Assembly (NCBI GenBank): GCA_964016885.1
Contig: OZ024741.1
Span: 8,122,001 to 8,186,000, forward strand
Source: Eledone cirrhosa
Lineage: Eukaryota
Reading direction: 5' to 3'
DNA length: 64,000 bases
This document shows positions 1-19,422 of the stretch, piece by piece; the first letter of the stretch is position 1; every line of letters starts with the position of its first letter. The notes under the pieces were generated by a model. It ran no database searches, was not told the DNA's origin, and saw nothing but the letters and a program-made list of their open reading frames with translations. A program made the translations under genes and the position numbers.

Positions 1-3000
1 AACTATAAATACATATAATAAATACAACTAACAACTGCTAGGAACCTCACAACTATAAATACATATAATAAATACAACTAACAACTGCGAAGGAAACTCA
101 CAACTATATATACATATAATAAATACAACTAGCAACTGCTAGGAGACTCACAACTATATATACATATAATAAATACAACTAACAACTGCTAGGAACCTCA
201 CAACTATATATACATATAATAAATACAACTAACAACTACTAGGATCCTCACAACTATATATACATATAATAAATACAACCAACAACAGCTAGGAACCTCA
301 CAACTATATATACATATAATAAATACAACTAACAACCGCTAGGAACCTCACAACTATAAATACAGTTAATAAATAGAACTAACAACTGCTAGGAGCCTTT
401 CAACTATAAATAAATATAATAAATACAACTAACAACTGCTAGGAATCTCACAGCCATATATACATATAATAAATACAACTAACAACTGCTAGGAGTCTCA
501 CAACTATATATACATGTAATAAATACAACTAACAACTGCTGGGAGCCTCACAACTATATATACATATAATAAATACAGCTAACAACTGCTAGGGGCCTCA
601 CAACTATATATACATATAATAAATACAACTAACAACTGCTAGGAACCTCACAACTATATATACATATAATAAATACAACTAACAACTGCTAGGAGACTCA
701 CAACTATATATACATATAATAAATACAACTAACAACTGCTAGGAACCTCACAACTATATATACATATAATAAATACAACTAACAGCTGCTGGGAGCCTCA
801 CAACTATATATACATATAATAAATACAACTAACAACTGCTAGGAACCTCACAACTATATATACATATAATAAATACAACTAACAACTGCTAGGAGACTCA
901 CAATTATATATACATATAATAAATACAACTAACAACTGCTAGGAACCTCACAACTATAAACACATATAATAACTACAACTAACAACTGCTAGGAACCTCA
1001 CAACTATATATTCATATAATAGAACTAACAACTGCTAGGAACCTCACAACAATATATACATATAATACAACTAACAACATCTAGGAACCTCGCAACTATA
1101 AATACATATATTAATACAACTAACAACTGCTAGGAACCTCACAACTATAAATACATATAACAAATACAACTAACAACTGCTAGGAACCTCACAACTATAA
1201 ATACATATAATAAATACAACTAACAACTGCCAAGGAGACTCACAACTATATATACATATAATAAATACAACTAGCAACTGCTAGGAGACTCACAACTATA
1301 TATACATATAATAAATACAACTAACAACTGCTAGGAACCTCACAACTATATTTATATATAATAAATACAAATAACAACTGATGGGAACCTCACAACTATA
1401 TATACATATAATAAATACAACTAACAACTGCTAGGATCCTCGCAACTATATATACATATAATAAATACAACTAACACTGCTAGGAGACTCACAACTATAT
1501 ATACATATAATAAATACAACTAACAACTGCTAGGAACCTCACAACTATATATACATATAATAAATACAACTAACACTGCTTGGAGACTCACAACTATATA
1601 TACATATAATAAATACAACTAACAACTGCTAGGAACCTCACAACTATATATACATATAATAAATACAACTAACACTGCTAGGAGACTCACAACTATATAT
1701 ACATATAATAAATACAACTAACAACTGCTAGGAACCTCACAACTATATATACATATAATAAATACAACTAACAACTGCTGGGAGCCTCACAACTATATAT
1801 ACATATAATAAATACAATTAACAACTGCTAGGAACCTCACAACTATATATACATATAATAAATACAACTAACAACTGCTAGAAGACTCACAATTATATAT
1901 ACATATAATAAATACAACTAACAACTGCTAGGAACCTCACAACTATAAATACATATAATAAATACAACTAACAACTGCTAGGAACCTCACAACTATATAT
2001 ACATATAATACAACTAACAACTGCTAGGAACCTCACAACTATATATACATATAATACAACTAACAACAGCTAGGAACCTCACAACTATAAATACATATAT
2101 TAATACAACTAACAACTGCTAGGAACCTCACAACTATAAATACATATAATACATACAACTACCAACTGCTAGGAGCGTCATAACTATAAATACGTATAAT
2201 ATATACAACTAACAACTGCTAGGAGCCTCACAACTAAATATACGTATAATAAATACAACTAACAACTGCTAGGAATCACACACCTATAAATACATAAAAT
2301 AAATACAACTAACAACTGCTAGGAGCCTCACAACTATACATACATATACTAAATACAACTAACAACTGCTAGGAGCCTCACAACTACATATACATATAAT
2401 AAATACAACTAACAACTGATAGGAGCCTCACAACGATATATACATATAACAAATACAACTAACAACTGCTGGGAGCCTCACAACTATATATACATATAAT
2501 AAATACAACTAACAACTGCTAGGAACCTCACAACTATATATACATATAATAAATACAACTAACAACTGCTAGGAACCTCACAACTATAAATACATATAAT
2601 AAATACAACTAACAACTGCTAGGAACCTCACAACTATAAATACATATAATAAATACAACTAACAACTGCGAAGGAAACTCACAACTATATATACATATAA
2701 TAAATACAACTAGCAACTGCTAGGAGACTCACAACTATATATACATATAATAAATACAACTAACAACTGCTAGGAACCTCACAACTATATATACATATAA
2801 TAAATACAACTAACAACTACTAGGATCCTCACAACTATATATACATATAATAAATACAACCAACAACAGCTAGGAACCTCACAACTATATATACATATAA
2901 TAAATACAACTAACAACCGCTAGGAACCTCACAACTATAAATACAGTTAATAAATAGAACTAACAACTGCTAGGAGCCTTTCAACTATAAATAAATATAA

Positions 3001-6000
3001 TAAATACAACTAACAACTGCTAGGAATCTCACAGCCATATATACATATAATAAATACAACTAACAACTGCTAGGAGTCTCACAACTATATATACATGTAA
3101 TAAATACAACTAACAACTGCTGGGAGCCTCACAACTATATATACATATAATAAATACAGCTAACAACTGCTAGGGGCCTCACAACTATATATACATATAA
3201 TAAATACAACTAACAACTGCTAGGAACCTCACAACTATATATACATATAATAAATACAACTAACAACTGCTAGGAGACTCACAACTATATATACATATAA
3301 TAAATACAACTAACAACTGCTAGGAACCTCACAACTATATATACATATAATAAATACAACTAACAGCTGCTGGGAGCCTCACAACTATATATACATATAA
3401 TAAATACAACTAACAACTGCTAGGAACCTCACAACTATATATACATATAATAAATACAACTAACAACTGCTAGGAGACTCACAATTATATATACATATAA
3501 TAAATACAACTAACAACTCCTAGGAACCTCACAACTATAAACACATATAATAACTACAACTAACAACTGCTAGGAACCTCACAACTATATATTCATATAA
3601 TACAACTAACAACTGCTAGGAACCTCACAACAATATATACATATAATACAACTAACAACATCTAGGAACCTCGCAACTATAAATACATATATTAATACAA
3701 CTAACAACTGCTAGGAACCTCACAACTATAAATACATATAACAAATACAACTAACAACTGCTAGGAACCTCACAACTATAAATACATATAATAAATACAA
3801 CTAACAACTGCCAAGGAGACTCACAACTATATATACATATAATAAATACAACTAGCAACTGCTAGGAGACTCACAACTATATATACATATAATAAATACA
3901 ACTAACAACTGCTAGGAACCTCACAACTATATTTATATATAATAAATACAAATAACAACTGATGGGAACCTCACAACTATATATACATATAATAAATACA
4001 ACTAACAACTGCTAGGATCCTCGCAACTATATATACATATAATAAATACAACTAACACTGCTAGGAGACTCACAACTATATATACATATAATAAATACAA
4101 CTAACAACTGCTAGGAACCTCACAACTATATATACATATAATAAATACAACTAACACTGCTTGGAGACTCACAACTATATATACATATAATAAATACAAC
4201 TAACAACTGCTAGGAACCTCACAACTATATATACATATAATAAATACAACTAACAACTGCTGGGAGCCTCACAACTATATATACATATAATAAATACAAC
4301 TAACAACTGCTAGAAGACTCACAATTATATATACATATAATAAATACAACTAACAACTGCTAGGAACCTCACAACTATAAATACATATAATAAATACAAC
4401 TAACAACTGCTAGGAACCTCACAACTATATATACATATAATACAACTAACAACTGCTAGGAACCTCACAACTATATATACATATAATACAACTAACAACA
4501 GCTAGGAACCTCACAACTATAAATACATATATTAATACAACTAACAACTGCTAGGAACCTCACAACTATAAATACATATAATACATACAACTACCAACTG
4601 CTAGGAGCGTCATAACTATAAATACGCATAATATATACAACTAACAACTGCTAGGAGCCTCACAACTAAATATACGTATAATAAATACAACTAACAACTG
4701 CTAGGAATCACACACCTATAAATACATATAATAAATACAACTAACAACTGCTAGGAGCCTCACAACTATACATACATATACTAAATACAACTAACAACTG
4801 ATAGGAGCCTCACAACGATATATACATATAACAAATACAACTAACAACTGCTGGGAGCCTCACAACTATATATACATATAATAAATACAACTAACAACTG
4901 CTAGGAACCTCACATCTATATATACATATAATAAATACAACTAACAACTGCTAGGAACCTCACAACTATAAATACATATAATAAATACAACTAACAACTG
5001 CCAAGGAGACTCACAACTATATATACATATAATAAGTACAACTAGCAACTGCTAGGAGACTCACAACTATATATACATATAATAAATACAACTAACAACT
5101 GCTAGGAACCTCACAACTATATTTATATATAATAAATACAACTAACAACTGATGGGAACCTCACAACTATATGTACATATAATAAATACAACTAACAACT
5201 GCTAGGATCCTCACAACTATATATACATATAATAAATACAACTAACACTCCTAGGAGACTCACAACTATATATACATATAATAAATACAACTAACAACTG
5301 CTAGGAACCTCACAACTATATATACATATAATAAATACAACTAACACTGCTAGGAGACTCACAACTATATATACATATAATAAATACAACTAACAACTGC
5401 TAGGAACCTCACAACTATATATACATATAATAAATACAACTAACAACTGCTAGAAGACTCACAATTATATATACATATAATAAATACAACTAACAACTGC
5501 TAGGAACCTCACAACTATAAATACATATAATAAATACAACTAACAACTGCTAGGAACCTCACAACTATATATACATATAATACAACTAACAACTGCTAGG
5601 AACCTCACAACTATATATACATATAATACAACTAACAACAGCTAGGAACCTCACAACTATAAATACATATATTAATACAACTAACAACTGCTAGGAACCT
5701 CACAACTATAAATACATATAATACATACAACTACCAACTGCTAGGAGCGTCATAACTATAAATACGTATAATATATACAACTAACAACTGCTAGGAGCCT
5801 CACAACTAAATATACGTATAATAAATACAACTAACAACTGCTAGGAATCACACACCTATAAATACATATAATAAATACAACTAACAACTGCTAGGAGCCT
5901 CACAACTACATATACATATAATAAATACAACTAACAACTGCTAGGAGCCTCACAACTAAATATACGTATAATAAATACAACTAACAACTGCTAGGAGCCT

Positions 6001-9000
6001 CACAACTATACATACATATACTAAATACAACTAACAACTGCTAGGAGCCTCACAACTACATATACATATAATAAATACAACTAACAACTGATAGGAGACT
6101 CACAACGATATATACATATAACAAATACAACTAACAACTGCTGGGAGCCTCACAACTATATATACATATAATAAATACAACTAACAACTGCTAGGAACCT
6201 CACAACTATATATACATATAATAAATACAACTAACAACTGCTAGGAACCTCACAACTATAAATACATATAATAAATACAACTAACAACTGCTAGGAACCT
6301 CACAACTATATATACATATAATAAATACAACTAACAACTGCTAGGAACCTCACAACTATAAATACATATAATAAATACAACTAACAACTGCCAAGGAAAC
6401 TCACAACTATATATACATATAATAAATACAACTAGCAACTGCTAGGAGACTCACAACTATATATACATATAATAAATACAACTAACAACTGCTAGGAACC
6501 TCACAACTATATATACATATAATAAATACAACTAACAACTGCCAGGATCCTTACAACTATATATACATATAATAAATACAACCAACAACAGCTAGGAACC
6601 TCACAACTATATATACATATAATAAATACAACAAACAACCGCTAGGAACCTCACAACTATAAATACAGTTAATAAATAGAACTAACAACTGCTAGGAGCC
6701 TTTCAACTATAAATACATATAATAAATACAACTAACAACTGATAGGAATCTCACAGCCATATATACATATAATAAATACAACTAACAACTGCTAGGAGTC
6801 TCACAACTATATATACATGTAATAAATACAACTAACAACTGCTGGGAGCCTCACAACTATATATACATATAATAAATACAACTAACAACTGCTAGGGGCC
6901 TCACAACTATATATACATATAATAAATACAACTAACAACTGCTAGGAACCTCACAACTATATATACATATAATAAATACAACTAACAACTGCTAGGAGAC
7001 TCACAACTATATATACATATAATAAATACAACTAACAACTGCTAGGAACCTCACAACTATATATACATATAATAAATACAACTAACAGCTGCTGGGAGCC
7101 TCACAACTATATATACATATAATAAATACAACTAACAACTGCTAGGAACCTCACAACTATATATACATATAATAAATACAACTAACAACTGCTAGGAGAC
7201 TCACAATTATATATACATATAATAAATACAACTAACAACTGCTAGGAACCTCACAACTATAAACACATATAATAACTACAACTAACAACTGCTAGGAACC
7301 TCACAACTATATATTCATATAATACAACTAACAACTGCTAGGAACCTCACAACTATATATACATATAATACAACTAACAACATCTAGGAACCTCGCAACT
7401 ATAAATACATATATTAATACAACTAACAACTGCTAGGAACCTCACAACTATAAATACATATAACAAATACAACTAACAACTGCTAGGAACCTCACAACTA
7501 TAAATACATATAATAAATACAACTAACAACTGCCAAGGAGACTCACAACTATATATACATATAATAAATACAACTAGCAACTGCCAGGAGACTCACAACT
7601 ATATATACATATAATAAATACAACTAACAACTGCTAGGAACCTCACAACTATATTTATATATAATAAATACAACTAACAACTGATGGGAACCTCACAACT
7701 ATATATACATATAATAAATACAACTAACAACTGCTAGGATCCTCACAACTATATATACATATAATAAATACAACTAACACTGCTAGGAGACTCACAACTA
7801 TATATACATATAATAAATACAACTAACAACTGCTAGGAACCTCACAACTATATATACATATAATAAATACAACTAACAACTGGTGGGAGCCTCACAACTA
7901 TATATACATATAATAAATACAATTAACAACTGCTAGGAACCTCACAACTATATATACATATAATAAATACAACTAACAACTGCTAGAAGACTCACAATTA
8001 TATATACATATAATAAATACAACTAACAACTGCTAGGAACCTCACAACTATAAATACATATAATAAATACAACTAACAACTGCTAGGAACCTCACAACTA
8101 TATATACATATAATACAACTAACAACTGCTAGGAACCTCACAACTATATATACATATAATACAACTAACAACAGCTAGTAACCTCACAACTATAAATACA
8201 TATATTAATACAACTAACAACTGCTAGGAACCTCACAACTATAAATACGTATAATATATACAACTACCAACTGCTAGGAGCGTCATAACTATAAATACGT
8301 ATAATATATACAACTAACAACTGCTAGGAGCCTCACAACTAAATACACGTATAATAAATACAACTATCAACTGCTATGAATCACACACCTATAAATACAT
8401 ATAATAAATACAACTAACAACTGCTAGGAGCCTCACAACTATACATACATATACTAAATACAACAAACAACTGCTAGGAGCCTCACAACTACATATACAT
8501 ATAATAAATACAACTAACAACTGATAGGAGCCTCACAACGATATATACATATAACAAATACAACTAACAACTGCTGGGAGCCTCACAACTATATATACAT
8601 ATAATAAATACAACTAACAACTGCTAGGAACCTCACAACTATATATACATATAATAAATACAACTAACAACTGCTAGGAACCTCACAACTATAAATACAT
8701 ATAATAAATACAACTAACAACTGCTAGGAACCTCACAACTATATATACATATAATAAATACAACTAACAACTGCTAGGAACCTCACAACTATAAATACAT
8801 ATAATAAATACAACTAACAACTGCCAAGGAAACTCACAACTATATATACATATAATAAATACAACTAGCAACTGCTAGGAGACTCACAACTATATATACA
8901 TATAATAAATACAACTAACAACTGCTAGGAACCTCACAACTATATATACATATAATAAATACAACTAACAACTGCTAGGATCCTCACAACTATATATACA

Positions 9001-12000
9001 TATAATAAATACAACTAACAACAGCTAGGAACATCACAACTATATATACATATAATAAATACAACTAACAACCGCTAGGAACCTCACAACTATAAATACA
9101 GTTAATAAATAGAACTAACAACTGCTAGGAGCCTTTCAACTATAAATACATATAATAAATACAACTAACAACTGCTAGGAATCTCACAGCCATATATACA
9201 TATAATAAATACAACTAACAACTGCTAGGAGTCTCACAACTATATATACATGTAATAAATACAACTAACAACTGCTGGGAGCCTCACAACTATATATACA
9301 TATAATAAATACAACTAACAACTGCTAGGGGCCTCACAAGTATATATACATATAATAAATACAACTAACAACTGCTAGGAACCTCACAACTATATATACA
9401 TATAATAAATACAACTAACAACTGCTAGGAGACTCACAACTATATATACATATAATAAATACAACTAACAACTGCTAGTAACCTCACAACTATATATACA
9501 TATAATAAATACAACTAACAGCTGCTGGGAGCCTCACAACTATATATACATATAATAAATACAACTAACAACTGCTAGGAACCTCACAACTATAAATACA
9601 TATAATAAATACAACTAACAACTGCTAGGAGACTCACAATTATATATACATATAATAAATACAACTAACAACTGCTAGGAACCTCACAACTATAAACACA
9701 TATAATAAATACAACTAACAACTGCTAGGAACCTCACAACTATATATTCATATAATACAACTAACAACTGCTAGGAACCTCACAACTATAAATACATATA
9801 ATAAATACAACTAACAACTGCTAGGAGCCTCATAACTATAAATACGTATAATAAATACAACTAACAACTGCTAGGAGCCTCACAACTAAATATACGTATA
9901 ATAAATACAACTAAAAACTGCTAGGAATCACACACCTATAAATACATATAATAAATACAACTAACAACTGCTAGGAGCCTCACAACTATACATACATAAA
10001 ATAAATACAACTAACAACTGCTAGGAGCCTCACAACTATATATACATATAATAAATACGATTAACAACTGATAGGAGCCTCACAACGATATATACATATA
10101 ATAAATACAACTAACAACTGCTAGGAATCTCACAACTATATATACATATAATAAATACAACTAACAACTGCTAGGAACCTCACAACTATATATACATATA
10201 ATAAATACATCTAACAACTGCTAGGAACCTCACAACTATATATACATATAATAAATACAACTAACAACTGCTAGGAGACTCACAACTATATATACATATA
10301 ATAAATACAACTAACAACTGCTAGGAACCTCACAACTATATATACATATAATAAATACAACTAACAACTGCTGGGAGCGTCACAACTATATATACATATA
10401 ATAAATACAACTAACAACTGCTAGGAACCTCACAACTATATATACATATAATAAATACAACCAACAACTGCTAGGAACCTCACAACTATATATACATATA
10501 ATAAATACAACTAACAACTGCTAGGAACCTCACAACTATATATACATATAATACAACTAACAACTGCTAGGAACCTCACAACTATATATACATATAATAA
10601 ATACAACTAACAACTGCTAGGAACCTCACAACTATATATACATATAATACAACTAACAACTGCTAGGAACCTCACAACTATATATACATATAATAAATAC
10701 AACTAACAACTGCTAGGGATCTCACAACTATAAATACATATAATAAATACAACTAACAACTGCTAGGAACCTCACAACTATATATACATATAATAAATAC
10801 AACTAACAACTGCTAGGAATCTCACAACTATATATACATATAATAAATACAACTAACAACTGCTAGGAGACTCACAACTATATATACATATAATAAATAC
10901 AACTAACAACTGCTAGGTACCTCACAGCTATATATACATATAATAAATACAACTAACAGCTGCTGGGAGCCTCACAACTATATATACATATAATAAATAC
11001 AACTAACAACTGCTAGGAACCTCACAACTATATATACATATAATAAATACAACTAACAACTGCTAGGAGACTCACAATTATATATACATATAATAAATAC
11101 AACTAACAACTGCTAGGAACCTCACAACTATAAACACATATAATAAATACAACTAACAACTGCTAGGAACCTCACAACTATATATTCATATAATACAACT
11201 AACAACTGCTAGGAACCTCACAACTATATATACATATAATACAACTAACAACATCTAGGAACCTCGCAACTATAAATACATATATTAATACAACTAACAA
11301 CTGCTAGGAACCTCACAACTATAAATACATATAATAAATACAACTAACAACTGCTAGGAGCCTCATAACTATAAATACGTATAATAAATACAACTAACAA
11401 CTGCTAGGAGCCTCACAACTAAATATACGTATAATAAATACAACTAACAACTGCTAGGAATCACACACCTATAAATACATATAATAAATACAACTAACAA
11501 CTGCTAGGAGCCTCACAACTATACATACATAAAATAAATACAACTAACAACTGCTAGGAGCCTCACAACTATATATACATATAGTAAATACAATTAACAA
11601 CTGATAGGAGCCTCACAACGATATATACATATAATAAATACAACTAACAACTGCTAGGAATCTCACAACTATATATACATATAATAAATACAACTAACAA
11701 CTGCTAGGAGACTCACAACTATATATACATATAATAAATACAACTAACAACTGCTAGGAACCTCACAACTATATATACATATAATAAATACAACTAACAA
11801 CTGCTGGGAGCCTCACAACTATATATACATATAATAAATACAACTAACAACTGCTAGGAACCTCACAACTATATATACATATAATAAATACAACCAACAA
11901 CTGCTAGGAGATTCTCAACTATATATACATATAATAAATACAACTAACAACTGCTAGGAACCTCACAACTATATATACATATAATAAATACAACTAACAA

Positions 12001-12874
12001 CTGCTGGGAGCCTCACAACTATATATACATATAATAAATACAACTAACAACTGCTATGAACCTCACAACTATATATACATATAATAAATACAACTAACAA
12101 CTGCTAGGAACCTCACAACTATATATACATATAATACAACTAACAACTGCTAGGAACCTCACAACTATATATACATATAACAAATACAACTAACAACTGC
12201 TAGGAACCTCACAACTATATATACATATAATAAATACAACTAACAACTGCTAGGAACCTGACAACTATATATACATATAATACAACTAACAACTGCTAGG
12301 AACCTCACAACTATATATACATATCATAAATACAACTAACAACTGCTAGGAACCTCACAACTATATATACATATAATAAATACAACTAACAACTGCTAGG
12401 AACCTCACAACTATATATACATATAATAAATACAACTAACAACTGCTAGGGATCTCACAACTATAAATACATATAATAAATACAACTAACAACTGCTAGG
12501 AACCTCACAACTATATATACATATAATAAATACAACTGACAACTGCTAGGAATCTCACAACTATATATACATATAATAAATACAACTAACAACTTCTAGG
12601 AACCTCACAACTATATATACATATAATACAACTAACAACTGCTAGGAACCTCACAACTAGATATACATACATATAATACAACTAACAACTGCTAGGAACC
12701 TCACAACTATATATACATATAATAAATACAACTAACAACTGCTAGGAACCTCACAACTATATATACATATAATAAATACAACTAACAACTGCTAGGAACC
12801 TCACAACTATATATACATATAATAAATACAACTAACAACTGCTAGGAACCTCACAACAGCTAGGAGCCTCACAA
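1..12874. repeat. 50-bp AT-rich tandem satellite (about 255-260 copies in the window, open at the left edge), with higher-order duplication
   Basis: Monomer caactatatatacatataataaatacaactaacaactgctaggaacctca repeats every 50 nt (e.g. 601-650). 46-, 49- and 51-bp variants occur. The diagnostic variant tacagttaataaatagaact recurs at 361, 2942, 6664 and 9097. Confidence 0.98.
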
Positions 12875-13066
12875 GGCCAACAAATTTTTGGGAAAGGAAA
12901 AGTCAATTAAATCGACCCCAATTCATTACTGGTACTTTATTTTGTCGACTCCCTAAGGATTAAAGGCAAGGCTAACCTCGGTGGGATTTGAAATCAGAAC
13001 GTAAAGGGACGTAACTGTATGCTGCTAAGCATGGTTTCCGATGCTCTACCGAATATGCTAAACCGT
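12870..13066 (-). mobile_element. tRNA-derived SINE, diverged copy on the minus strand (cephalopod-like family)
   Basis: Its reverse complement aligns with 13800-13992: shared ttctga.ttcaaat.cc.ccgaggtta.c.ttgccttt.atcctt..gg.gtcga.aaaataaagtaccagtaatg and a tggcctt.tg tail. The B-box is degenerate. The family assignment is from recollection, not a search. Confidence 0.75.
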
Positions 13067-13799: not shown

Positions 13800-13992
13800 G
13801 GCGGTGGATTGGCAGTATCGGTAGAGGGTCGGACGCCATGCTTTGAAGCATAGAGTTACGGCCCTTTCTATTCTGAGTTCAAATACCGCCGAGGTTAACT
13901 TTGCCTTTTATCCTTGCGGGGTCGATAAAATAAAGTACCAGTAATGCACTGGGATAATTGCTGGCCTTTTGCCCAAAGTAGAAACAATTATT
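13800..13992 (+). mobile_element. tRNA-derived SINE with Pol III A and B boxes
   Basis: A-box-like tggcagtatcgg (13810-13821) and B-box gagttcaaatacc (13875-13887), then ggggtcgataaaataaagtaccagt and an AT-rich tail. It is an inverted homolog of 12870-13066. Confidence 0.8.
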
Positions 13993-14343: not shown

Positions 14344-14489
14344 ATACTTTGGGAGGGTCATATTGCAATATTATTGCCAGAAATAATAACAGAACACACT
14401 CACTGTTTGGTTAGTTTTCGCTTCTACATCTTATATATCTCCACAGTTAATTCATTTGCCCATCAGTGTTTATCACTGACACCCAAAAA

Positions 14490-14650
14490 CAATGATCAGG
14501 TGATAAAAATAGTCGCGCATGCAATAGGGACCAGCATTAAAACTATCCCAAAGGGCCATATATTCAAACTCAATAAAAAGATCTACACCCAAAATGAGGG
14601 AGCAGCCATCGGCGTCAGCATAGCTGGTAATGTTGCCAATCTTTTTATGA
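14490..14650 (+). pseudogene. Fragment of a divergent Penelope-like reverse transcriptase (motif B' region)
   Basis: HIFKLNKKIYTQNEGAAIGVSIAGNVANLFM aligns without gaps to [31 protein letters not shown] in the intact PLE ORF at 16605-18737. The fragment ends in a fold-back inversion. Confidence 0.7.
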
Positions 14651-14682
14651 TACCATAAAAAGATTGGCAACAACATCAGCTA
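14621..14682. repeat. Fold-back inverted repeat (19-bp perfect stem, 4-nt loop) terminating the RT fragment
   Basis: tgttgccaatctttttatg (14631-14649), loop atac, then cataaaaagattggcaaca (14654-14672). Outer tagctg/cagcta also pair. Confidence 0.95.
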
Positions 14683-14745
14683 TATATATATATATATAGT
14701 ATAAAAAAACCAAAAGTCAGTGATGCATCTGGACTCAATTTATTG

Positions 14746-14836
14746 CGTGTTACAATTGTTTCGCCGGCATGTAGCTCGAGACATGGTCCTTGTATGGATC
14801 TGGCTGATTCTACGGCTGCAGGTTCCTTCAGACACG
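14746..14836 (-). ncRNA. Type I hammerhead-ribozyme-like motif (Penelope type), left arm
   Basis: Minus strand reads CGUGU-CUGAAGGA-[~60-nt helix II]-GAAA-C-AAUU-GUA/ACACG. Helix I CGUGU:ACACG is perfect, the helix III loop is palindromic (ACAAUUGU) and the cleavage triplet is GUA. The core deviates from CUGANGA. Confidence 0.6.
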
Positions 14837-14879
14837 GGTATTTCGTTTGGAGCAAATTTTTATCTCCGAACGAACTACA

Positions 14880-14970
14880 CGTGTCTGAAGGAACCTGCAG
14901 CCGTAGAATCAGCCAGATCCATACAAGGACCATGCCTCGAGCTACCTGCCGGCGGAACAATTGTAACACG
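14880..14970 (+). ncRNA. Type I hammerhead-ribozyme-like motif, right arm (GAAA mutated to GGAA)
   Basis: cgtgt-ctgaagga-acctgcagccgtag...ctacctgccggc-ggaa-c-aatt-gta-acacg. It mirrors 14746-14836 with one further core substitution. Confidence 0.5.
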
Positions 14971-15074
14971 CAATAAATTGAGTCCAGATGCATCACTGAC
15001 TTTTGGTTTTTTTATACTATACACACTCTACTCTGTTGAATATTGAGTGCTAATTTTGGCATACCGCCTATGGA

Positions 15075-15094
15075 AGCACCATAGGTACCATTAT

Positions 15095-15184
<90 letters not shown>

Positions 15185-15288: not shown

Positions 15289-15427
15289 GAAAAGTGTAAT
15301 TTTCTACACAAAACGAAGGTTATAGAGAAAATTGGGGTTGGTAATGGCACATGGAATATATAAGAGACAGAATACTTTTTTGTGAAAAAACATAATTTTA
15401 TAAGGTAAGGAAATAATAAAGGGTATA

Positions 15428-15477
15428 AAAAATGACCGGTTTCGATGGGTCTGCAAAAGCCATCTTTTCAAATGTTG
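15428..15477 (-). ncRNA. Minimal type I hammerhead-ribozyme-like motif with U3:A8 core variant, in the putative PLE pLTR
   Basis: Minus strand reads aacat-UUGAAAA-GAUGG-cuuuugcagac-CCAUC-GAAA-C-CG-GUC/auuuu. Helix II GAUGG:CCAUC is perfect, helix III is the palindrome ACCGGU, the triplet is GUC and helix I is weak. It lies in the same orientation as the PLE ORF. Confidence 0.65.
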
Positions 15478-15705
15478 ATTAATATTAAGAAAAATTAATA
15501 ATACGAAGAGTTAAAATTTGAGACTTGAAAATTCAAGTATAAAATTCATTGTGGGATTTCATAGCAGTTTTCATCTAGGTACCAACAACAGGTTGACTGC
15601 TGTGTCCCTTTCTGGTAGTGAATGAGAAGTTATTTGGGGTGTGGGTTATTTTATAAAGGTCAGATTTAGCAATAGCCAGCTGCTGGTCAGTGAGGGGGTG
15701 GAAGC

Positions 15706-16456
<751 letters not shown>

Positions 16457-16604
16457 CGTGTGTGCACGTGCAGGGTTTAACATGGATGTGTTGGTCACAC
16501 AAAGGCATGGTCTGTCAATGAATAAACCTGATTCTACAGAATTGGTCTCTGGTCTTTAATAGTAGTGATTCCGTGCGTATGTGTGTTTATATTTTATGAC
16601 AATT

Positions 16605-18737
16605 CTATTGGGGTGATAACCCGTTTAGTTTTGGTTTAAATTTGTTAAGGAATAGATTTTCTTTGTTTATTCTTTGTTGTTGTGTGAACGAATCTGAGCA
16701 CTTGTAGAAGGGGAAGATTTTAAAGTTGGGTAGTGTCATTCCTGCGCAGTTCGCAATATGGCTGCTCAAGGGGATTTTTCTTGTGTTAGCGTCCCGGATT
16801 TGTTGGCGGTGGATGGTCATTCTTTTGCGTAATGAGGTGCCCGTCTGTCCTATGTAGTTGTGTTTGCACCCACCGCAAGTTATTGCGTAAATCAAGTTCT
16901 CCGAGTTGCAGGTGAAATTGTTTTTTACTGTAAATGTTTGGCCATCTTTGAATGTAAATGTTTGTCCTTCAGTGAGGTAGAGGCACGTTCCACAGTTTGT
17001 TCTACCACATTTGGTAACTGTAGGGTTGAGGATTGGTTTGGGTATATTTGGTCCAGTGAGAATGCGTTTAAGTGATTTGGGTTGTCTTTTACTTTTAAGG
17101 ATCTTGTGTGTTTCAAGAATAGACTTCATTTTTACATCTTTAAGTAGGATGGGGAGGTTTTTGTGTAGGTGATCAAACATTTCGGTATTTCTGGGGTTGA
17201 AAGTGGATACATATGGCAGGGTGTTGAGTGTGGTTTTCTGTTTTGGATTGTTAAGTTGATGGGGATTTAGGTGTTTTGCCCTGTCTATTCCATTGTTGAT
17301 TATTTCAAGTGGAAAGGCTCTTAAGATAAGGGTGTCTTTTAGTTCCTTTAGTCTTTGCTCCCGTTTAGGTGGATCTGATACTATGGTACATATACGTTTG
17401 GCCAAATTGTAAGGAATGTTAAGTTTTGTATGTTTTGGGTGACTTGATGTGAAAAAGAGGTATTGCTTGGAATCTGTGGGTTTATAGAATATATCTGTAT
17501 CTAATTTCCCGTCTATTACAGAGATGAGAATATCCAAGAAGGCTAATTCCTTAGGATTGGATTCCATTGTGAATTGTATGTTATTATCTATGTTGTTTAT
17601 CATGTTTTTAAACGTAGTAAGTGAGTTCATGTCTTCTTGCCATAGGATAAAGCAGTCGTCTAGATATCTTTTCCAATTGGCTTTGAGGTGTGTGTGGAAA
17701 GAGTCTCCAAATAAGAGAAGGGACTGACTGTATATTTGTTGTTCATGGAATCCCATGACTAGGTTGGCATATGTGGGTGCTACTTTCGTGCCCATTGCCG
17801 TACCTGATACTTGTCTGTATGTTGAACCATTGAATGTGAAGTAGTTATTTTGTAGGATAAAGCGGAGTCCGTCAGTGATAAAATCTGTGTTGATGCGTGT
17901 CGGTATTTCTGATGGGTGTGTGTTAAGCCAGTATTGGACTGCTGTTATTCCATAGTTGTGAGGTATGTTTGTGTAGAGGTTTATTACGTCAAAGGAGACA
18001 AGAATTGTATTTGCACTTACTGTTTTAGGGAGGTGTTTCAGCATGTCAAGGTCATCTCGTATGTAGCTCTGTATATGTTGTAGAAAGGGTTTCAGTAGGA
18101 TGTCCAGAAAGTTGCTAAGTCTGTGGGTTTCACATGTAGGGCCTGCTATAATTGGCCTGAGTTTTAGGTCTTCTGGTGGTGTTAGTTCAATGTAATTGTT
18201 GGTTGAGGTGTCACATGCATCGTTTATGGGTTTACATTTGTGAAGTTTCGGTAAGCCGTAAAAAGAGCTTGTATTGCATTTGAAGTGGCTTATATAGTTA
18301 AACTCTTTTGTGGTTAAGCTGTTGCGGTATTTATTCAGTAAGGTCAAAAGGTTCCCCATTGTTTTGGTGTGTTTGTAGTTTTCTGTTTTTTCATAGTATG
18401 TGTTGTTTTCTAAAATGTTAAGTGCGAGGGTCCTATAGTAGTCCGTATTCATAATCACAACAGTACTGCCTTTATCGGCTTCTTTGATAGTTATCTCAGG
18501 GTTGTTTCTAAGTGTGAATAATTCTTCCCATTCGTGTGTAGATAGGTTTGATTTCGTGTGTTTATTTGTAATTGTTTCATAGGGAAAGTTGGTGATGTGT
18601 TTGCAGTACGTGTCCAGTGCTTTATTTCTTCCCTTTTGTGGGCAGAAATTGCTTTTATTTCTAACCAGTGATTCGTCTTCAGTGTTGGTGTCGTTGTGGG
18701 AGAATTCCGTTAGTCGCAGCTTTCGGCAGTATTCCAT
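16605..18737 (-). CDS. Penelope-like element ORF: reverse transcriptase plus GIY-YIG endonuclease (N-terminally truncated, 710 aa uninterrupted)
   Basis: RT motifs: [76 protein letters not shown]...SSHP. Linker CGRTNCGTC. Endonuclease [19 protein letters not shown]...RM..H. Confidence 0.96.
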   Translation of the reverse strand: [710 protein letters not shown]

Positions 18738-19422
18738 GATGTCATCCTATATATATATATATATCCTTGTTTGAAGAACTTTGTAACGCGAACGAACTGG
18801 TGCGAAATTTATTATAATTATTGACCAACCAATCAAATTACTTCTCGAAAAACCTGGCATTTCGAGCCACTTTTTCCATATAAAACAAGTAACATTCAGA
18901 GACCAACCAGATATGAGAAAAACCACAGACCCTCCATCTCAACTCTACTTTTGAAAAGCAGAAGAACTGCGAAACCGGTAAAGAAACCAAATAAATATAT
19001 ATATATTTTTTTAAATAAGACTCCAGTTGCATTTTCGATTTCATCTTTTTTTCTTTATACAGTAACAGTATATATATATACAAATACGGTATATATTTTA
19101 TCTAATGATTCTATGGACTTACTTTTATATATATATATGATACATATAGTTATTGTTTTGGTTGTTTGTGTGTGTATTTTAGCGACAGTATAGTAACGAC
19201 CCAGTTTTAAATAATATAAGACGTTGAAACCTTTCTTATAATAACCTACGATTAACCAACAGTATGATGTAGGTCTATAGTAAAATTACATTTATCAGTG
19301 TTTCTCGCGGGACACTTAGCCACCTGTTGGGGAACCCTAGGGTTGAGGGGAACACCGGTTGAGGACAAACGGAGGATTAAATATGACACAACATAGTGAA
19401 CAGAACAAAATTTCCAGGACGT

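Follow-up and report, generated by a model that had tools for sequence, protein, structure and literature searches.

A long, conserved helix II in predicted minimal hammerhead ribozymes from the terminal repeats of a Hydra-clade PLE lineage in Eledone cirrhosa

On the evidence of their predicted anatomy and of their linkage to RT genes, minimal hammerhead ribozymes with a helix II extended to 57–63 nt occur in the terminal repeat (pLTR) of one RT-encoding lineage of Hydra-clade PLEs in Eledone cirrhosa. The conserved long arm is a variant of a known pairing of ribozyme and retroelement and has so far been seen in one genome. We are evenly divided over the fuller account developed below, according to which a lineage-specific extension of helix II would carry a protein-docking bulged helix that gates cleavage, and a look-alike of the arm in a neighbouring Neptune-like PLE would be a captured, non-folding relic.

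The DNA analysed (hereafter the window) is a 64,000-nt stretch of assembly GCA_964016885.1 (contig OZ024741.1, positions 8,122,001–8,186,000, forward strand), in which a cluster of PLEs is flanked by two long satellites (1–12850 and about 19300–57000; units of about 59 nt, read in part, and of 37 nt, in about 1,010 copies). The window also holds an inverted pair of a dispersed SINE-like repeat (12917–13064 and 13806–13953, 81% complementary) and, at 14400–14680 (+), a short RT-like fragment of a further PLE family that ends in a small inverted repeat and has no Pfam match. An earlier note on this DNA had described a 35-nt bipartite motif, consisting of two identical 10-mers (boxes 1 and 2) at equal spacing, in one arm of a palindrome and in the 3' UTR of a Neptune-like PLE; a pattern search recovers the motif at both places and a third time in the other arm (Table 1), giving three matches in the window and none in 100 shuffles.

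Results

Anatomy of the long-armed hammerhead

Each arm of the palindrome contains a predicted type I minimal hammerhead with its core boxes, an NUH triplet and helices I–III, and one extra core base that is characteristic of the family concerned (family B). In an alignment of 24 hand-picked intact copies from ten families, the rows of which are related to one another, helices I and III are paired in 87.5% and 97.2% of cells, respectively. The departure from the class lies in helix II, which is not short in any of these families, and in the G10.1–C11.1 pair, which is present in only 7 of the 24 rows. Given the extra core base of family B and a U4C change in several families, some of the long-armed ribozymes may be dead. 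Rfam returned no hammerhead or other real family over this region of the window, nor in the loci of five families.

Downstream of the hammerhead, at window positions 14990–15050 (+), a branch-point-like word and a pyrimidine tract are found in families B, D and G (family I has the tract as well), and an AG follows at some distance. The pLTR may thus contain an intron end, although no conserved splice donor was seen. The same tail, and the matching tails of D, G and I, hold two small conserved hairpins.

Table 1. Positions in the window of the hammerhead-bearing palindrome, the Neptune-like element and the copies of the bipartite motif.
Feature	Position	Strand	Remarks
Palindrome arms	14695-14852 and 14864-15021		Two terminal repeats, both 5'-truncated, placed head to head
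Left arm, 5'-truncated family B pLTR	14695..14864	-	From 5'-end hot spot to main 3' end adjoining (TA)n
Right arm, inverted 5'-truncated family B pLTR with optional tail of ~70 nt	14864..15097	+	
Left-arm long-armed hammerhead	14746..14836	-	Second core box unmutated
Right-arm type I minimal hammerhead	14880..14970	+	Helices I-III, core boxes, triplet
Right-arm core carrying an additional base	14885-14892	+	
Extended helix II, 61 nt	14893..14953	+	Covarying lower stem, bulged central helix, apical hairpin with A/C-rich loop
Central helix, bulged and near-invariant	14903-14912 paired with 14936-14945	+	
Right-arm second core box	14954-14958	+	Carries an A-to-G change here
Right-arm GUA triplet	14963-14965	+	Helix III palindromic
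AATAAA 3' of right-arm hammerhead	14972-14977	+	
Motif, Hydra right-arm copy	14903..14937 (pattern 14903-14934)	+	5' strand of central helix, apical hairpin, first bases of 3' strand
Motif, Hydra left-arm copy	14779-14813 (pattern 14782-14813)	-	Third copy, from pattern search
Motif, Neptune-like copy	16503..16537 (pattern 16506-16537)	-	In family A 3' UTR; without surrounding hammerhead core or CGAGCU pairing strand
Family A 3' UTR/pLTR	15289..16604	-	Microsatellite-rich middle
Family A short hammerhead	15434..15471	-	U3-A8 core variant, 5-bp helix II
Family A ORF, RT and C-terminal GIY-YIG	16605..18746	-	5'-truncated; 713 aa open; RVT_1 match

Conservation of helix II across families

The part of the arm retained by RNAalifold is the central helix alone (AG/CU, a two-by-one loop, UC/GA, a bulged pyrimidine and RGG/CCY), in which box 1 pairs with CUYGAGCU and which is near-invariant in about ten families, between stems that covary. 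A U–A pair of this helix is present in all 24 rows and a G–C pair in 22, and family K swaps an A–U pair for G–C. The whole fold is paired in 82.5% of cells, compared with 28–38% when the partners are slid (24 rows). Cells with a double change number 79, compared with 30.9 in shuffled alignments (0 of 500 shuffles; similar on 25 rows), the structure having been drawn from the very sequences scored; a stricter measure, pairs with change, is weaker (29 of 500 shuffles), and only the cell-based measures beat all shuffles. Folding of single sequences is no better than that of shuffles (z −1.5 to +0.8). Box 2 varies widely among the families, and the conserved unit is not the two 10-mers of the earlier note; it consists of box 1 and its pairing strand, whose start falls within the final 3 nt of box 2 and which the Neptune copy lacks. 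The suggestion of a structured RNA is thereby upheld for helix II of the hammerhead, and the role in RT recognition attached to it is not supported.

The arrangement is abundant in the 3.0-Gb genome. A pattern made of the core only, with an insert of 50–72 nt and the sequence of helix II ignored, has 7,259 matches (control 100), from which family B is left out because its extra core base fails the pattern; among the first 100 matches listed, about 92, counted by eye, lie in motif-bearing families and the other 8 are different long-armed hammerheads. Combining the central block with the second core box gives 7,387 matches (control 4). Hammerheads with a long helix II and without the conserved block are also seen at L306, L309, L315, L377, L378, L379 and L369:2719-2803; the long arm may have had more than one origin in this genome. 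At L106:3800-5600 (−) units of about 505 nt stand head-to-tail in a retrozyme-like arrangement, and every unit contains a hammerhead-like core whose long helix II is of another kind.

Several other identities for the block were considered and rejected. Spacers differ by 1–3 nt between families, by lengths that are not multiples of three, and the block is therefore not coding. A splice site at CAG|G does not fit, as by eye neither GT nor AG is kept in B, B2, E, I and J, and comparison by eye with consensus sequences shows no fit to a K-turn, box C/D, SECIS, HDV-like or twister motif. The bulged-G (loop E/sarcin-ricin) motif has an AGUA/GAA internal loop with an obligatory bulged G; the arm has AGUC/GAG, or AAUC/GAG in B and B2, which amounts to a resemblance only.

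It is also unlikely that the arm is an RNA-only module for folding or dimerisation, in which an active dimer would arise through self-complementary words, either paired between two copies or docked on helix I. Helix III is indeed a short palindrome, as in the dimeric minimal hammerheads of PMC4209133, most families carry the self-complementary CUCGAG and two GAUC words in the arm, and the monomer hammerhead fold is never that of lowest energy, with a gap of at least 1.8 kcal/mol in 24 of 24 rows, some of the gaps being inflated by alignment slips. However, CUUGAG or CCUGAG replaces CUCGAG in families I, J and K, the GAUC pair is absent in J and K, and the invariant loop would, by known hammerhead geometry, lie about 12 bp from the core and far from the 5-bp helix I.

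The link to RT ORFs extends to B, D and I. The linked RTs are 52–62% identical to that of B and form one clade (95/92), in a tree of sequences from this genome only, in which one row is partly out of frame and three are under half filled. Hydra families of this genome at 41–51% RT identity have an 18-nt helix II or a different arm of 47–56 nt, so the arm is not needed by the clade.

The palindrome belongs to an RT-encoding family

The earlier note took the palindrome to be a non-autonomous element. Translation of related copies identifies it instead as a truncated end from a Hydra-clade PLE family with a predicted RT and nuclease of its own. At locus L031 RT and nuclease lie on the hammerhead strand, 2.5 kb upstream of the ribozyme, and the RT has RWR and DKT, in keeping with the hallmarks of the clade, in which RWK replaces GxKF/Y and DKG becomes DKT (Craig et al., PMC8557442). 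The nuclease likewise follows the clade: it is a C-terminal GIY-YIG with a CxCX5C linker, CxxC and CxH and without CCHH, the Pfam GIY-YIG match (E 0.0018) being below the curated cut-off. Family B also shares with Hydra-clade elements its insertion into (TA)n targets and its tandem and inverted truncated copies. Size and ORF number depart from the description of under 3 kb and a single ORF, L031 being about 5.6 kb long with a 2.5-kb 3' UTR and two frameshifts; the source calls the elements 'generally' short (PMC8557442).

The nuclease lies 2.4–2.9 kb upstream of a hammerhead on the same strand in L031, L043 and L049, and a whole long hammerhead stands about 180 nt before the ORF, again on the shared strand, in 11 of 30 loci chosen by the RT N-terminus (79–100% identical). 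All family B copies examined carry frameshifts, and the longest open frame among those listed is 750 aa.

Origin of the Neptune look-alike

The second element of the earlier note (family A) fits a Neptune-like PLE by its sequence, longer copies (L034, with the window translations) having GxKF, DKG, a CX4CxxC linker, within the CX2-5CxxC form of the class, and, at the C terminus, GIY-YIG. Its copies diverge by 0.3–1.1% from their majority sequence, which points to a young family. It has a short hammerhead of its own about 1.03 kb downstream of the motif look-alike, with a core variant described by Cervera and De la Pena (PMC4209133).

Back to back with family A, at 18790–19080 (+), is another Neptune-type terminal repeat end with CCAAT and TATA-like words and a U3–A8 hammerhead at about 18951–18980. 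CCAAT and GAGCCACTTTT words recur ahead of the hammerhead in two sibling Neptune families and are likely to constitute a conserved Neptune promoter module. In a Neptune sibling 57% identical to family A, young and of high copy number (L189:2690-2740, −), the second core box is altered in all copies listed, so that this family may spread without a working hammerhead.

Several details of the Neptune copy are as originally described: it begins 67 nt beyond the stop of the 713-aa ORF (about 70 nt in the earlier note), the motif is in element-sense orientation there as in the Hydra copy, and the flanks look unrelated, the ungapped match of the two 35-nt copies stopping at the motif edges. The Neptune and right-arm copies are identical at 26 of 35 positions. 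An AT.CAT said to be conserved in register proves to be copy-specific: 27 of 30 protein-selected Neptune copies have ATTCGT or a variant with G there, and the eighth base of box 2 in family B is A, T or C, with T in the left arm of the window. Searching the genome with the 17 fixed bases of the pattern, as the earlier note had proposed, yields 1,669 matches (control 0), of which the first 100 listed belong to two families, 55 being of type A and 45 of type B by our own count.

The earlier note read the two copies as one cis-acting signal common to both elements, through which the palindromic element could use the Neptune RT. Its basis is the two exact 10-mers at equal spacing, both in sense orientation, and the retention of all 17 fixed bases in 28 of 30 family A copies. 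Yet family B encodes its own RT, and the Hydra and Neptune proteins are alignable over about 95 aa only, at 26% identity. All 30 copies of the sibling Neptune family (57% identical) lack the motif, as do all 30 of a second, less closely related family (48% in the nuclease), which, by the reasoning of the earlier note itself, goes against an RT signal shared by PLE families; nor was it found in 40 foreign PLE-like loci (prokaryote assemblies, in collections with little animal DNA). Moreover, the boxes of family A are no more conserved than their flanks (0.3–0.7% versus 0.5–0.9%, a comparison of low power), and because the CGAGCU strand is lacking the two most invariant pairs of the helix, U–A and G–C, cannot form. 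A signal shared by Neptune and Hydra elements is largely refuted, and we regard it as very improbable. A first scan outside this genome with a single protein found none, and five metagenome matches (at most 17.5 bits) look like chance, both in collections with little animal DNA. The PLE-like RT sequences seen in GTDB prokaryote assemblies (L219–L258) are probably host DNA.

The pairwise match, taken alone, is only suggestive, since shuffles can reach its score: 2 of 300 do so when the test is restricted to the Neptune copy, 18 of 200 (9%) when all unique DNA of the window is used, and 95 of 200 reach, window-wide, the score of majority-type family A copies. A chance match, without history shared with the Hydra arm, would be compatible with these figures, and with the behaviour of the Neptune copy in model searches, where it was not reported by a covariance model (R1) at E≤10 and was the only match of a sequence profile in the element, at E 0.07–1.7 (1.1–1.7 without families B and B2). 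We consider it somewhat unlikely, in view of four observations: the look-alike hits the most conserved block of the arm; its 15-nt spacer is that of families B, C and G; it agrees with family G at 16 of 29 positions outside the two boxes (100 of 5000 shuffles), some family G rows having been chosen by a box 2 pattern that leaves these 29 positions untouched; and most family A copies carry, about 65 nt downstream, a further foreign piece that matches the antisense end of a different repeat at 76% identity over 58 nt (E 1e-7), the copy in the window having lost most of it.

The look-alike is thus probably a captured Hydra relic that does not fold, as far as its sequence indicates, and that it is functional is highly unlikely at best. 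A short Hydra end may have inserted into (TA)n within the 3' UTR of a family A ancestor, decayed there and been carried along by the recent burst of the family. No close donor was found among 36 exact-pattern matches, all of them point variants of D/G-type families, and only family A has the Neptune-type spacer pattern among 100 listed of 780 matches.

Copy ends and a possible gating of cleavage

The ends of genomic copies bear on whether the RNA that is copied has been cut. A tag that lies downstream of the cut site was used to choose 73 copies of family B, the first places on contig C1, with some pairs representing a single insertion. Of these, 66 extend past the site, 5 have their end downstream of it and 2 have theirs no more than 3 nt away; there is accordingly no pile-up of 5' ends at the predicted GUA/GUC cleavage site (2 of 73). 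A recurrent start, by contrast, lies about 35 nt upstream of the core, within 6 nt of which 20 of the 73 begin. By inference, transcription starts at this point, and uncut RNA usually serves as the template of family B copies.

In families B, B2, C and D the leader that precedes the core (for example at L352:7788-7812, −, and L344:1209-1233, +) is similar to the 5' half of a Hydra hammerhead with a short arm (L036, L341), and likewise to that of helix II. Pairing of this leader with the UCGAGC strand is conceivable; the feature was not seen in G and I. It is possibly an old duplication or an alternative fold that would block the ribozyme.

A sequence frozen around a loop and a bulge amid covarying stems is the usual look of a protein site. 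The frozen bulged helix beside covarying stems therefore favours a docking site that would gate cleavage, and the central helix is likely to be such a putative site, on the strength of its sequence and of analogy. The arm would sit in the 5' leader of the RNA and, in the upstream repeat, directly before the polyadenylation signal; the ribozyme would remain mostly uncut until the RT-nuclease protein of the element, or a host factor, bound the bulged helix, and uncut RNA would thereby be kept as template for new copies. Copying from uncut RNA agrees with the Poseidon element PAc (Frangieh et al. 2024, PMC11167929): its hammerhead needs protein in order to cleave, and uncut RNA is the template that it inserts. 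PAc likewise has two 3' ends (main and tail) and offers a model for protein-gated cleavage. Poseidon PAc differs in belonging to another clade and in having a hammerhead that overlaps the start of the ORF; the RNA required for its insertion has been located in the initial 172 nt of the ORF, and binding at helix II is not shown in the portions available (PMC11167929).

That the conserved block acts instead as DNA, binding a transcription factor in the downstream part of the pLTR promoter, with pairing secondary, appears quite improbable. Words that we take to be CRE-like and CCAAT motifs precede the inferred start in B, B2, C and D, and the block begins at about +54, past what are presumably the usual positions of core-promoter elements. 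Compensatory changes occur in and beside the block, which likewise speaks against this reading. What favours it is that the sequence is invariant on both strands, that a similar word occurs upstream of the core in family D and that pLTRs act as promoters (PMC11167929).

Discussion

The extended helix II sets these predicted ribozymes apart from their nearest known relatives. The Hydra-clade PLE hammerheads of PMC8557442 (File S2) are alike in having a type I core at the 3' end or in the pLTR, an extra unpaired base on either side of helix II, a short palindromic helix III, (TA)n targets and the same protein hallmarks; in all 26 Hydra rows of File S2, however, stem II plus loop is at most 24 nt (22 nt in Hydra-1_oBim), as opposed to the 57–63 nt with a bulged helix described here. 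Metazoan PLE minimal hammerheads (PMC4209133) share the pLTR location, the palindromic helix III and the many solo copies and opposite-strand pairs, but have a helix II of 6–8 bp with a highly variable sequence, and the available parts of that paper do not describe a conserved helix II subdomain. The closest in length is PLE-X1_sMoe of Selaginella (PMC8557442, File S2), whose helix II has a 9-bp stem and a 34-nt loop (52 nt); it is a single flagged case, from an EN-minus plant element and with another sequence, and the table gives no family-wide conserved block. Animal non-LTR retrozymes (PMC7229834; bioRxiv 10.64898/2026.07.22.740005) also have type I hammerheads from PLE pLTRs, but they are ORF-less head-to-tail arrays, unlike the truncated ends of an ORF-bearing family found here; the palindrome was rejected as a retrozyme or other non-autonomous derivative because family B copies encode RT and nuclease and the arrangement is head-to-head. 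In the portions of the literature searched, which also include PMC6962438, PMC6155905 and PMC7229834, no description of the long arm was found; supplementary alignments, the Terminon paper, Repbase or Dfam could hold one.

The arm also shows that short-stem descriptors and Rfam miss hammerheads by the thousand in genomes of this kind. The Neptune look-alike is of minor importance beyond the warning it gives: PLEs that have (TA)n targets in common can pick up each other's scraps, which can then be mistaken for shared signals.

The role of the PLE hammerhead is itself unsettled, these ribozymes cleaving poorly alone and one of them needing the protein of its element. A 60-nt arm with a bulged core that persists in families whose RTs are only 52–62% identical provides a site to mutate or footprint and so makes the question testable. 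We put forward tentatively, as a proposal that is on balance doubtful, that this lineage of Hydra-clade elements grafted a conserved protein-binding domain onto helix II and thereby acquired a protein-switched ribozyme; if this is true, the RT-nuclease of the element would itself decide whether its RNA is cut or kept whole for copying.
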